From Deltaproteobacteria bacterium (GTDB taxonomy: Bacteria > UBA10199 > JACPAL01), in assembly GCA_016180855.1 (NCBI GenBank), contig JACPAL010000010.1:118988-182987 (forward strand): DNA of 64,000 bases. Reading direction: 5' to 3'. The notes beneath the pieces are model-generated. The model had not been told where the DNA came from, searched no databases, and saw only the letters and a list, made by a program, of their open reading frames with translations. The position numbers and the translations under genes are program-made. This document shows, one piece after another, positions 55,338 to 60,984 of the stretch (its first letter is position 1; the number at the start of each line of letters is the position of its first letter).

Positions 55338-56165
55338 ATGGGGCTCAAAAACTTTGAGAGACTAAAAAACCTAAGCAGTTGGAGAAAACTCTCGATTGCT
55401 ACTTGGCGTGCCCCCAACGATCCAACCGTCTATGGGCAGCTACCAATCGATTTCACCGCCTGTCGTGCCTATCTGGAGAAGATCAACAAGGACTCCGATA
55501 TCAAGATTACGGTAACACATCTCGTTGCCAAGGCGGTGGCGCTTGCCCTGCGCAGTTTTCCGGATTTAAACGGGATCATCCGATGGAGAAGGATTTATAT
55601 CCGAAAGACCGTCGATATCAGTCTGCAGGTCGCTATTGAACAGAAAGGGAGGGCAGAGAAACCGGATCTTTCAGCCGCCAAGGTGGAGAATTGTGATGAA
55701 AAGAGCCTCCAGCAGATCGCACGGGAGCTTAAGAAGAAGAGTGAGAGCATCCGTACGGGGAACGATCCCCAATTTCGCTCGACCTTGAGGATGCTTGATC
55801 TGCTCCCACCGCTCCTCCTTACCTGGGCCGTCAAGCTCATGGTCTTTTTGACCTTTGATCTGGGGCTCGCCTTTCCGCGTCTTGGACTTCCACGCGATCC
55901 ATTCGGTTCGGCGATGGTGACAAGCGTCGGGATGCTCCGGGTTCCGTCCGGTTTTGCGCCTCTCGTTCCGTTATCTCGTGTTCCGATCATTGTCTGTGCC
56001 GGTGAGGTGAAGGATCAACCGTGGGTTATAGAGGGTCAGCTCGTCGTTCGTCCCGTGCTTGATCTGAGCTTCACCTTCGATCATCGCTTTATTGATGGAC
56101 TGACCGGTTCGCGAATGGCCAATTATCTTCGAGGAATCATCGAGAACCCCGACAAGTTTTTTTAA
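55338..56165 (+). CDS. Stand-alone 2-oxoacid dehydrogenase E2-type acyltransferase catalytic domain protein
   Basis: Catalytic DHRFIDG motif near the C-terminus. No lipoyl or E3-binding domain. GGAG RBS before the ATG at 55338. Confidence 0.65.
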   Translation: MGLKNFERLKNLSSWRKLSIATWRAPNDPTVYGQLPIDFTACRAYLEKINKDSDIKITVTHLVAKAVALALRSFPDLNGIIRWRRIYIRKTVDISLQVAIEQKGRAEKPDLSAAKVENCDEKSLQQIARELKKKSESIRTGNDPQFRSTLRMLDLLPPLLLTWAVKLMVFLTFDLGLAFPRLGLPRDPFGSAMVTSVGMLRVPSGFAPLVPLSRVPIIVCAGEVKDQPWVIEGQLVVRPVLDLSFTFDHRFIDGLTGSRMANYLRGIIENPDKFF

Positions 56166-57916
56166 CGATTTAAGATCGCCGTAGAAATCATGAGAGCAAG
56201 TCCGGCGACCATCCCGATACCACCCGTCCATCGCAGTGCAGAGATCGGAAAGAGGTGTGGCCTTCCGCGGACGAAAAAAATGCGGTAATGGACTCGAATC
56301 GCACAGCCCAGTAGAGTCAGAATTCCTGAGAGGCAGAACAGGGCGATACCGGTTTTCGAAAACGGATAGAACGGATCCCTCTCCATTTTCCAATGAAGCG
56401 TGGGGGGATCTGGATACTGAATTTCTATTTCCTCCAGAAAAGCGGCAGCCCCTCCGTCTGACATCGCGTCGATCGATCGGAGCCATCCGTCATAATAAGG
56501 CGGATCGACGCCCAGGCCATGCCATGGCGTCTGTTTTCCAACGAGCTCGGCAAAAAATTCTATTTCATCCGAGAGGCTGTATTCTGACGGAAAGTAGTCG
56601 GCCAGCCGATAGTGATTCCAGAGCCGGTCAAGCTCCTTTGAGTCGTCCTTGGAGAGCTCGTTCGTCCGGAGATCCGGATTTATGATAATTTTCCTCAAAA
56701 ACGTGAGGTCTTTTTGATTATCTGTGACGCCCGCCTCATCGAGCGCCTTCTCTGCATAGCGAAGAAAAAGGTGTGGCATTGCATCGGGCAGTAGAGGATT
56801 GCTGTAATAAAGGGCATGGGCGAGCTCATGCGAAATCGTTGTACTGTGTGTGCTCTTCGTGCCAGCATCGTACTTTGCCGGATGGCTCAGAAGGAAAATC
56901 GCTCTGTCATCTGTGCAATGCAAGCCATCAGCATTTTCATCTTCGACAAAACGCTCTTCGATGACATCTTTACACAAGTCGCCAATTCCATTGGACTCGG
57001 CGAGCATTTCAAGCTCCTGGGCACTACCAAGGTAGAACCGGATCGATTCATAAGGGGCAAGATGGACGAATGGTGCAATGGAGGCGGCTCCGAGCAGGTT
57101 GTCAAGGACCTCGGCCTCACGGATCGAAACGGTCCCCTGAGCCGTCTGAAGGGTGATCGTTTTTCCATCGATCATGACGAATCTGTTCCCTATGACAATT
57201 TTATGGCGTGCCAGAAACTGATCGATACTCCTGTAAAACGCGTGGCGCTGTTCCGGATGCTGGTACGAAAATGTCTTTTCTGTTGGAGCAGTACGGAGTT
57301 GGTTCGAATCGCTGATTCTGAGACTATGGGATAATGGGTCCTGACCGGGTGGCACGATCCAGCTGTCGATAACACGGAGGTAGGGGGTGTTACCGATCTG
57401 CCATTCTGTCTCCAGTCTTCCCATCGAATGGGATTGATCCGCCGCCGTCAAATAGAAATCTTTCTGGCGGACCGTCTTTCCGTTTGGAGAGGTGACACGC
57501 AAAGTGACAGACCAGTGATACCCCTCATCCTTCGGTCCCCTCACAAGATCAAAAAATTCTACGAGGCCGTCCTCTCTTTCGACTCGATATTGACGGTAAC
57601 CATGGCGGGAGTGGTAAAGACCCTCGGTTGGAAGGATCAATATGGTTCCAGCATCAACGCTTAGCAGGTCCTGGCCGGCAATGGAATCTGTCACGAGCCT
57701 TTCCTTTGAGAGTTCGCCGGTGACCAGGAATGCCTGCAATTGTTGGAGGAGTTCTGGTTTGTCTGCAACCAGGCTGTGCCCAAACTCATCATAAAGGGTG
57801 ATGGAATCCTCTGCGTTGATTGTATTGGGATCGCTCCCACGGGAGAAGAGGGAACCCGAGGAGAGCTCAAGCCCCCGTCTCCGGAGGTAGGTTGGATGAA
57901 TAGAAAAGTCCGCCAT
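56162..57916 (-). CDS. Putative HExxH zinc metallopeptidase with a C-terminal double TM anchor
   Basis: TTISHELAHALYY, with a downstream Glu (EIEFFAE). Two C-terminal TM helices. Confidence 0.5.
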   Translation of the reverse strand: MADFSIHPTYLRRRGLELSSGSLFSRGSDPNTINAEDSITLYDEFGHSLVADKPELLQQLQAFLVTGELSKERLVTDSIAGQDLLSVDAGTILILPTEGLYHSRHGYRQYRVEREDGLVEFFDLVRGPKDEGYHWSVTLRVTSPNGKTVRQKDFYLTAADQSHSMGRLETEWQIGNTPYLRVIDSWIVPPGQDPLSHSLRISDSNQLRTAPTEKTFSYQHPEQRHAFYRSIDQFLARHKIVIGNRFVMIDGKTITLQTAQGTVSIREAEVLDNLLGAASIAPFVHLAPYESIRFYLGSAQELEMLAESNGIGDLCKDVIEERFVEDENADGLHCTDDRAIFLLSHPAKYDAGTKSTHSTTISHELAHALYYSNPLLPDAMPHLFLRYAEKALDEAGVTDNQKDLTFLRKIIINPDLRTNELSKDDSKELDRLWNHYRLADYFPSEYSLSDEIEFFAELVGKQTPWHGLGVDPPYYDGWLRSIDAMSDGGAAAFLEEIEIQYPDPPTLHWKMERDPFYPFSKTGIALFCLSGILTLLGCAIRVHYRIFFVRGRPHLFPISALRWTGGIGMVAGLALMISTAILNR

Positions 57917-57966
57917 GGGTCGTCACTAACCTTTTCGGCTATTTTCGGGATTTGTTTTGGTATTTT

Positions 57967-60900
57967 TTAGGACCGCGAATCAGCAATGCGCCGCAGGGCG
58001 ATTGCAACGCCAGGGTACCGTTCCATTAGTGGTTCAAGTTCAGATGCTGGCAGGCGCAGAACCCTCGCCTCCGTTAGGGCCGTCACGGTGGCGGATCGAG
58101 GGGTGTTGTTGACAAGTGCCATTTCTCCAAACATCCCACCCTGACGATGACGATTGATTGAAAAACCCCAGCCATGGCGAACGTCGAACTCCCCTGAGAG
58201 GACGACATAAACATCCCGATCGACCGCCCCACGGCGGATCAGGTTTTTCCCCTTTGGAACCGTGAGGAGTTCACCGACGGAGAAGAAAAGATCCTGAAGG
58301 GGAGGGGAGAGAGTCCCAAGGGGAGATTTCTGAAGGGCGGTGAATGCCTCCTTCTGGGTCTGCCACTTTTGGAGAAACTTCCTTCGCAAGAAATCCAAGG
58401 TGTAGGGAGTGAGGTCCTGACAATCGACCTCCAGGAAAAGCGACTGCATACTGGGGTAGACGTCGGCATTCCTTCTTTCACCAACAATCGCTCCTTCGCC
58501 GAAGAAGCCGTTTGGCCTCACGGCAATCACCTTGAGACCCTGGCTGACCTCCACTTCACCATCCAGAAGGATATAGAACTTCCTTCCCTCTTCTCCTTCC
58601 CTCATGAGAGGTTCTCCTAGCCCAATCTGACGTAATTTTCCGGCCTGAAGGAGCTCCTCTTTGAGAGAAGGGGGAAGAAAATCAAGGATTGGGAGTCGGT
58701 CGATGGTCTGACGTACCACTCGATTTGGAGACAGAGGTTCAAAGTCCGGCAGATGACCTGAAAGATCAATGAGACCCTTGTGCCCTTCCTGCCATTTGGG
58801 CACTTTGGCATCGTCGGCCGCTTTCTGCCCGATGTGGTAGACAAAGACATTGGAAGTATCTATTCCCTCGCTCCCAAGCTGATCCAGAAGTTTTCGGGTC
58901 CCCTCCGGTGGGGTGTGGATCGGTGCAATTCCTCCTTCCAGAAGAACAACGAGCGGTGGGGAGGTTCTGATACTATCGCGCAATGCCTTTATATGTCGGA
59001 TGATCTGTTCGGCCCTTTCCCGGTTCATGACAGGAGGCTTGTTGTCTTTTGGTTGAGTATGCTGCCAGATCCCTTCTGGATCGGCGTAGGTATCTCCTGA
59101 AAAACAGACGATCGGTCTTCCTGCTTTCAAATCTGGTTTGGTGTAGATGTCAAAACCGATCGTTGGGATGACATGGAAGGCATAATCGGCTCGGAAATGA
59201 AGTCCATTGATCTCCGTAAATCTCTGCGGCAGGAGCGGGACAAAGTTCCATTGAGTAAGTCCCTCCTGACGTCCTCCCAGGGCGAGTTGATATTGTTCCT
59301 GGAGCATCTCAAAGATCGTTGGTGTTGTGTAGACCTTGATTTTGGGAAGGGAACGTAACAACTCCGGGACTGCCGGGCCATAGTGGTCTGTATGTCCATG
59401 GGTCAGGATAACCCCTTCGATTGCCTCCAGGGGCAGGCCGTTCTGTGCGAAGTACTCCATCGTATTTGAGGGGGGATCAACGAGAATGACACGGCCGCGA
59501 TTCCAGATCATAAAACCGCTCGTGTTCTCTCCTAATGCAAAACCATGTCCGGTTCCGAGCGGCCACAGAACTGGTCGTCCCTCCAGAAGAACCTTCTGTC
59601 TTGCCGCTTGCAGCGCTTCGTCGCGCCATCTTGCCTGAGGTGAAGGTTGGGCGGTAGGAGGGAGGAACTTCCGAAGATCAAGTCGTCCGAGAAATTCCCC
59701 CTGATCGGTAATGTCATAAATGAGCGGGGCTACTTTTTTTATGATGACTCCATCTTTTGAGAAGAGACCCTCGGCATTAAAGGATCTAATGCTTCTCCGT
59801 GCCGCGGCGGGAGCGGCCCGAAAACCTTCTTTCATCTCACGGAGGGAATCAGGGATCCCCACGGCATCCGGGGGATACTCATTCCGGATTTTTTGGGTAA
59901 GCGCGGGGTCTGCCGGCCCATCGTGGGCCAGATCAAGAAGGGTTTCGAGACGCTTGGCTGTCCCCGCATCAGGGGCGACAAAGTTGAATGTGGTCCCGTT
60001 CGTCACATAAAAGTTGTATTGGGGAAAATCGGCCGCCAGGAGCCCGACTGTCTTGGGCACAAAATCGAGATCCACGACACAATTCAATGGAACAAGGTGG
60101 GGGATTCTCTCCTTCGGAATATCCCTACCCCCATTCTTAAGATAAAGATCGAGGACGTCTTTGTTGCTCCACATCTGGAGGCCGAACTGCCATAGGCCGC
60201 CACTTGTCTGAACGGTAATACCCCCATGCGGTAGGACTTTAACAAGACCTTCGGGGACTTCTGGCACTGCCTGTTGATTTGTCACGGGAAGGAATCGTTG
60301 TGTCAGCACACCGGTCTGTCGGCCGACCATCATATAGAGGAGTCCCTCCCCCAGCTCCATCTTGAGTCGTTCGAATACGGTCAGGTCGGCTGTTTCTTCC
60401 ATCCCGGTCATTTCGAGGCTGATCCCCGTTCCAATCGACAGGATTGCCTGAAAAGGTTGGAGACAGATGTCCTGCAGAAAAGTGGCGCCGAAACTGTAAC
60501 GGCGCAGAAGCCCCATTCCCAAAATCGTTGAGGGACAGGAGTAAAGAAAGCTTGTTACCCAATCTTTTGCCAGGGGGCGTTCTGATTGATCCTTGATCCT
60601 ACGATAACCAGCCATCGCCATTGACGTGGCTCCTGCAAGAAATAAACTGCCTAAAAACCCACCGGCATTTTTGACAGAACAATTCTTTCCAAAGAGTCTG
60701 GACTGGATCGGTGCAAGAGACCGTGTGAAGAGATTGAGCACGACGGTTGTGGCAAGGAGTTCGCCACCTCCTGAAAAGGTGGTGAACCGTTGGGCGTATT
60801 GATCTTGCCACGCCTCGTATGAACTTAGGTACTGACGTCCTGTTGCGGCGGGATTGGCTAAGAGAAGCCCGTTCGTAATGGCATACTCCCCCGCACCCGG

Positions 60901-60984
60901 TTCATAGTGATAGGATCCGGTTAACGGAAGAGGAAGGTTGGGGCTAGAACTCATGTAGGACGATTGTCGGAGAGGGCGGAGCAA
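57967..60984 (-). CDS. Large multidomain protein: unknown N-terminal region, MBL-fold (class-II phosphodiesterase-like) domain and tandem CAP-type cNMP-binding domains
   Basis: 1005 aa. LTHGHTDHYGP metal motif. Two cNMP-binding signatures (FGEGAIVGERRNA..., FGEMALVNNTPRSATVTA). Confidence 0.75.
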   Translation of the reverse strand: MLRPLRQSSYMSSSPNLPLPLTGSYHYEPGAGEYAITNGLLLANPAATGRQYLSSYEAWQDQYAQRFTTFSGGGELLATTVVLNLFTRSLAPIQSRLFGKNCSVKNAGGFLGSLFLAGATSMAMAGYRRIKDQSERPLAKDWVTSFLYSCPSTILGMGLLRRYSFGATFLQDICLQPFQAILSIGTGISLEMTGMEETADLTVFERLKMELGEGLLYMMVGRQTGVLTQRFLPVTNQQAVPEVPEGLVKVLPHGGITVQTSGGLWQFGLQMWSNKDVLDLYLKNGGRDIPKERIPHLVPLNCVVDLDFVPKTVGLLAADFPQYNFYVTNGTTFNFVAPDAGTAKRLETLLDLAHDGPADPALTQKIRNEYPPDAVGIPDSLREMKEGFRAAPAAARRSIRSFNAEGLFSKDGVIIKKVAPLIYDITDQGEFLGRLDLRKFLPPTAQPSPQARWRDEALQAARQKVLLEGRPVLWPLGTGHGFALGENTSGFMIWNRGRVILVDPPSNTMEYFAQNGLPLEAIEGVILTHGHTDHYGPAVPELLRSLPKIKVYTTPTIFEMLQEQYQLALGGRQEGLTQWNFVPLLPQRFTEINGLHFRADYAFHVIPTIGFDIYTKPDLKAGRPIVCFSGDTYADPEGIWQHTQPKDNKPPVMNRERAEQIIRHIKALRDSIRTSPPLVVLLEGGIAPIHTPPEGTRKLLDQLGSEGIDTSNVFVYHIGQKAADDAKVPKWQEGHKGLIDLSGHLPDFEPLSPNRVVRQTIDRLPILDFLPPSLKEELLQAGKLRQIGLGEPLMREGEEGRKFYILLDGEVEVSQGLKVIAVRPNGFFGEGAIVGERRNADVYPSMQSLFLEVDCQDLTPYTLDFLRRKFLQKWQTQKEAFTALQKSPLGTLSPPLQDLFFSVGELLTVPKGKNLIRRGAVDRDVYVVLSGEFDVRHGWGFSINRHRQGGMFGEMALVNNTPRSATVTALTEARVLRLPASELEPLMERYPGVAIALRRIADSRS

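Follow-up and report, generated by a model that had tools for sequence, protein, structure and literature searches.

The phosphodiesterases GbpA (PdeD/PDE5) and GbpB (PdeE/PDE6) of Dictyostelium belong to class IIb, and like the bacterial protein described here they carry a metallo-beta-lactamase (MBL) domain followed by two cyclic nucleotide-binding (CNB) domains. Binding of cNMP to these two CNBs, which follow the catalytic domain, stimulates the enzymes (PMC11988041, PMC8684759), and Dictyostelium members of the GbpA type have been established by experiment as cGMP/cAMP phosphodiesterases (PMC11988041). Other MBL cNMP phosphodiesterases are Apyc1, YhfI and Rv1339 (PMC9117128, PMC9293780), of which the Apyc1 proteins are stand-alone enzymes of about 250 aa (PMC9117128). 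The typical class II enzymes (PF02112; yeast PDE1, Dictyostelium PdsA and Vibrio CpdP) carry no CNBs, unlike the bacterial protein. Apyc1, B. subtilis YhfI and M. tuberculosis Rv1339 are homodimers that lack regulatory domains and are referred to as 'atypical class II'. To our knowledge, experimental work on cNMP-stimulated MBL phosphodiesterases has been confined to Dictyostelium. Literature searches returned no study of bacterial MBL plus CNB phosphodiesterases, and the bacterial members bear only generic database names.

The window (the whole stretch of DNA analysed, 64,000 nt) contains two neighbouring minus-strand ORFs, gene A and gene B, with the coordinates and lengths given in the initial annotation. 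Their features are as follows.

57967..60984, minus strand: gene A, a 1005-aa ORF from a TTG, predicted cNMP phosphodiesterase of the GbpA type (MBL), extended by an N-terminal module
60289..60984, minus strand: N-terminal module, residues 1–232, helical and hydrophobic
59575..60267, minus strand: pre-MBL domain, residues 240–470, with the motif LP(R/H)GGxxVxTxxGxxQFGxxxxxxKD
58750..59571, minus strand: MBL catalytic domain, residues 472–745
59383..59400, minus strand: HGHTDH (HxHxDH) metal-binding motif, residues 529–534
58405..58707, minus strand: CNB-A, residues ~760–860, phosphate-binding cassette FGEGAIVGERRNADV, whose Glu and Arg are conserved across the family
57970..58317, minus strand: CNB-B, residues ~890–1005, cassette FGEMALVNNTPRSATV, of the canonical form GE...PR(S/T)A(T/S)V
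57917..57966, minus strand: intergenic spacer between genes A and B, 50 nt, with no terminator-like hairpin
56162..57916, minus strand: gene B, encoding a 584-aa orphan protein

The ATG at 60954, giving a protein of 995 aa, is more likely than the TTG to be the true start of gene A, since the gene of a 99%-identical strain (P0001) was called there and the alignment with a 62%-identical orthologue (P0002) begins there. Compared with its counterpart in the 99%-identical strain, gene A shows 16 synonymous and 6 nonsynonymous codon differences, a pattern in keeping with purifying selection. The locus is probably best explained by gene A encoding a GbpA/GbpB-type enzyme, a class IIb phosphodiesterase of MBL fold that acts on 3′,5′-cNMPs and is stimulated by cNMP, with gene B standing outside any conserved system.

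Pfam and a motif scan placed an MBL domain with the HGHTDH motif, followed by two CNB domains, in the C-terminal half of gene A, as initially annotated. The Pfam models Lactamase_B (34.4 bits) and Lactamase_B_2 (PF12706; 29.2 bits, cutoff 27) match residues ~488–647, and D503, H529, H531, D533, H534, H604, D631, H690 and H717 are invariant in an alignment of 20 family members, in which every metal ligand of the MBL domain is kept. Residues 240–1005 of the AF2 model, the MBL fold included, have pLDDT values above 90. When the family profile was compared with PDB sequences, the best matches were Apyc1 (7T28, E = 3.7e-9; 7U2S) and YhfI (6KNS), with 1ZKP also found; the matches to Apyc1 and YhfI extend no further than the HxHxDH motif. 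The Pfam model Anti-Pycsar_Apyc1 (PF23023) is named in the precomputed lists for P0001 and P0002, but when run locally on gene A it scored 14.2 bits, below its 50-bit cutoff, whereas PF12706 passes. Gene A also differs from Apyc1, YhfI and Rv1339 in being a 1005-aa multidomain protein, which adds the pre-MBL domain, two CNBs and the N-terminal module to what in those enzymes is a stand-alone unit. The typical class II model PF02112 (PDEase_II) gave no match to gene A even at E ≤ 10.

The Pfam model cNMP_binding matches gene A twice, at residues 761–846 and 908–990 (101 bits in total). Both phosphate-binding cassettes keep the ligand-binding Glu and Arg, and the cassette residues are such that cAMP and cGMP are not distinguishable as ligands. 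Foldseek matches of gene A in the PDB are dominated by the tandem CNBs of the PKA regulatory subunit and PKG (E ~1e-17; phmmer E down to 6e-16), on which the C-terminal ~250 aa superpose as a CNB-A/CNB-B pair. In PKA and PKG these domains regulate a kinase, whereas in gene A they are fused to a hydrolase.

The kinship with the GbpA/GbpB type, initially put forward as a shared domain architecture, was found to be homology across the whole core. An exhaustive HMMER search recovered 85 proteins at E ≤ 1e-30, many covering profile positions ~233–995. Eukaryotic GbpA-type proteins are among the matches, and P0104 carries the NCBI name 'cGMP-dependent 3′,5′-cGMP phosphodiesterase A' by annotation transfer. 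In BLASTP, an amoebozoan protein matches gene A collinearly, its residues 465–1004 aligning with 476–1004 of gene A at 25% identity and E = 7e-34. A profile of the pre-MBL and MBL domains, with the CNBs excluded, aligned by hhalign to five protist GbpA-type proteins with a probability of 100% (E = 1.7e-50, 452 columns). The GbpA/GbpB comparison is with protist proteins of that type, one of them GbpA-named, rather than with the Dictyostelium sequences themselves, and in this comparison gene A is collinear from the pre-MBL domain through the MBL domain to the second CNB, and keeps the HxHxDH motif, the other metal ligands and both phosphate-binding cassettes. It differs in coming from an uncultured bacterial lineage, in its extra hydrophobic N-terminal module of ~230 aa, and in being only ~25% identical to the protist proteins.

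The family was revealed only by the exhaustive HMMER search. Word-indexed searches returned P0001 and P0002 together with one weak CNB-only match (gene A as single query) or four unrelated CNB proteins (family profile). A scan of a genome collection with N-terminal peptide patterns gave no loci, and a second scan gave four true loci among 185k species genomes, one of them in a UBA10199 MAG, the remainder being generic MBL proteins of Streptomyces and others. The nearest relatives of gene A are proteins of 'Deltaproteobacteria' MAGs. A further group of bacterial 'cyclic nucleotide-binding domain-containing proteins' of ~725 aa, such as OQA19673.1 (bacterium ADurb.Bin363) and proteins from Candidatus Eremiobacteraeota and Omnitrophota MAGs, has the same core of pre-MBL domain, MBL domain and two CNBs. 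These proteins begin with LPRGG..(V/A).TSAG..Q.G..PETIKD, lack the N-terminal module of gene A, and form a different subfamily, scoring ~110–155 bits to the profile compared with 300–880 bits for the 'Deltaproteobacteria' MAG clade.

The substrate assignment has one competing explanation, in which gene A would encode a cNMP-gated hydrolase of a non-cNMP substrate (of RNase Z, PhnP or arylsulfatase type). The CNBs would sense cAMP or cGMP while the MBL domain cleaved RNA, 2′,3′-cyclic phosphates or another phosphodiester or sulfate ester, making the product a signal-activated effector and not a signal terminator. The NCBIfam RNase Z and RNase J models match gene A weakly, and one of the ~725-aa relatives is named 'CRP-like cAMP-binding protein/ribonuclease BN' in IMG. 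However, no RNase Z, RNase J or CPSF family model reaches its cutoff on gene A, and the RNase Z type, which the initial annotation had set against a phosphodiesterase, scores 17.7 bits where 293 are needed. The best structural and PDB-sequence matches are instead the cNMP phosphodiesterases Apyc1 and YhfI, and homology to the GbpA-type group, in which the Dictyostelium enzymes hydrolyse cGMP/cAMP in experiments (PMC11988041), spans the entire core, so that a non-cNMP substrate appears unlikely.

The N-terminal region of gene A, at first described as ~400 uncharacterised residues, really comprises two unrelated parts, residues 1–232 and ~240–470. Residues 1–470 have no Pfam match even at E ≤ 10, and the AF2 model is unreliable over residues 1–232 (pLDDT <50) and confident over the pre-MBL domain (pLDDT >90). 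The pre-MBL domain is conserved across the bacterial family and likewise in the bacterial proteins of ~725 aa and the eukaryotic GbpA-type phosphodiesterases; judged by this sequence conservation, it is a previously unremarked domain present throughout this phosphodiesterase family.

Of the hydrophobic segments in the N-terminal module, one is strongly so and two or three moderately, the Kyte–Doolittle maximum being 1.36 in gene A and 1.6–2.0 in homologues. Its conserved motifs include S.YxAW, YS.PS..LGMGL..R..FG, LQD, ER.KME..EG and GR..G. The module matches no known family, its profile finds no match among PDB sequences (best E = 1.9), and P0006 has a different N-terminal extension to which that profile shows no relation. 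The exhaustive HMMER search detected it only in gene A, P0002 and four other proteins, P0050, P0077, P0100 (helicase C) and P0111, in which the C-termini joined to it are unrelated. When 88 loci were searched by tblastn with the module (L089–L091 lay outside this set), the sole matches were the copy in the same species and the P0002 orthologue. The module is a new, recurrent hydrophobic helical domain, lineage-specific in gene A. It probably keeps the enzyme at the membrane or within a complex, the membrane being suggested by hydropathy.

Gene B carries the annotated HExxH motif as HELAH (residues 363–367, window positions 56816–56830), and the proposed C-terminal anchor of two helices was recovered at residues 524–542 (56291–56347) and 564–582 (56171–56227), with Kyte–Doolittle values of 2.17 and 1.82; hydropathy shows no N-terminal hydrophobic segment. 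A single HExxH is weak evidence for a peptidase, because one turns up in 5.2% of 20,000 shuffled versions of gene B. No peptidase family was matched in Pfam, NCBIfam, PHROGs or PADLOC, and nothing was found among PDB sequences at E ≤ 10. Candidate third zinc ligands are E388 and an EIEFFAE segment ~85 aa downstream, which recalls EFFAE of anthrax LF and ECFA of MtfA. This likeness to MtfA or anthrax LF was rejected as evidence, since BLASTP against E. coli MtfA aligns the motif only (E = 0.62) and gives the candidate ligands no support. An AF2 model made without an alignment was unusable (pLDDT 39). The codon differences from the 99%-identical strain, 14 synonymous and 8 nonsynonymous, make gene B look like a real gene under purifying selection. 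The sequence points to a species-specific tail-anchored membrane protein, which the HExxH motif marks as a candidate peptidase.

Co-transcription of the two genes is plausible given their shared strand and the 50-nt gap with no terminator-like site. The pair is retained in the 99%-identical strain (P0001). These features, the signs of selection on gene B, and the hydrophobic segments that could place both proteins at the membrane would fit a functional two-gene module, in which the phosphodiesterase would be processed or anchored by the tail-anchored HExxH protein, or would control it, as in the effector pair of the initial annotation. Against this, a set of 5.8 billion protein clusters holds homologues of gene B from its own species only, it resembles no peptidase family or solved structure, and its motif turns up by chance in 5% of shuffles. 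It is absent beside P0002, and tblastn of the same 88 loci found only the same-species copy, gene B being missing from every other family locus fetched. Neighbours differ at every family locus examined; that of P0002 lies between obg-like and bolA-proB-proA genes, in housekeeping surroundings that include rsfS and gpmI. As gene B is an orphan and absent from the other family loci, genes A and B do not form a conserved system, and a functional module of the two is quite unlikely.

The fusions of the N-terminal module, to a phosphodiesterase in gene A and to helicase-like or unknown C-termini in the other four proteins, could also be taken to mean that it is a shared targeting or translocation 'carrier', by which an uncultured lineage delivers or anchors polymorphic effectors. 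The GbpA-type phosphodiesterase would be one of these, and the cAMP/cGMP signalling that it collapses would be that of a protist serving as host or prey. This is very unlikely, and if true would fit the close kinship of the bacterial and protist GbpA-type proteins, possibly through inter-domain gene transfer.

The initial annotation had also considered a cNMP-gated effector pair analogous to Pycsar or CBASS, which finds no support, gene B being species-restricted and absent beside P0002 and from every other family locus fetched, and gene A matching PADLOC models only through the CNBs. More broadly, a role in Pycsar/CBASS-related anti-phage defence, or conversely as an Apyc1-like counter-defence phosphodiesterase of a mobile element, is most improbable: the PADLOC PycTIR, Pycsar effector and PycC models do match gene A (E = 2e-26 to 1e-11), Anti-Pycsar_Apyc1 is listed for P0001 and P0002, and a Phd/PIN toxin-antitoxin pair lies immediately upstream, but the PADLOC matches are confined to residues ~877–1002 of the CNB region with no effector domain beyond the sensor, there is no adjacent cyclase or conserved operon, the orthologue has housekeeping genes around it (obg, bolA, proBA, rsfS, gpmI), the window looks like ordinary chromosomal DNA, with polA, complex I and sdhAB, and has no pointers to counter-defence, Apyc1 proteins are ~250-aa stand-alone enzymes (PMC9117128), and a BFVD fold search found no matching architecture.

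The most likely function of gene A, read from its sequence, is thus that of a membrane-associated, cNMP-stimulated cNMP phosphodiesterase. A binuclear metal site in the MBL domain would hydrolyse cAMP and/or cGMP. Catalytic activity would rise when the two C-terminal CNBs bind a cyclic nucleotide, either the substrate itself or a related one. The enzyme may thereby provide substrate-driven negative feedback on signals from class III cyclases. One such cyclase, with a CHASE2 domain, is encoded on the minus strand ~55 kb from gene A and runs off the start of the window. The elaborate cNMP signalling repertoire suggested at first is only weakly addressed by these data: there is the one CHASE2 cyclase, and the 64-kb window contains nothing else that resembles gene A or any of its domains, hence no other close CNB paralogue. 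The core of ~720 aa (pre-MBL, MBL, CNB-A and CNB-B) would be the ancestral unit, common to the ~725-aa bacterial proteins and the protist GbpA-type proteins. To this core gene A would have added the lineage-specific module of ~230 aa, which probably holds it at a membrane or in a complex. Gene B may share its transcript while standing outside any conserved system and, being an orphan, it gives no ground for counting the locus as a candidate defence or effector pair.

The whole catalytic and regulatory core of the GbpA-type enzymes, including the pre-MBL domain, thus exists in uncultured bacteria ('Deltaproteobacteria' MAGs, Candidatus Eremiobacteraeota and Omnitrophota). A bacterial member would offer a tractable entry to the structure and allosteric mechanism of this class of phosphodiesterase, and also to the role of the pre-MBL domain and the evolutionary origin of the protist enzymes.

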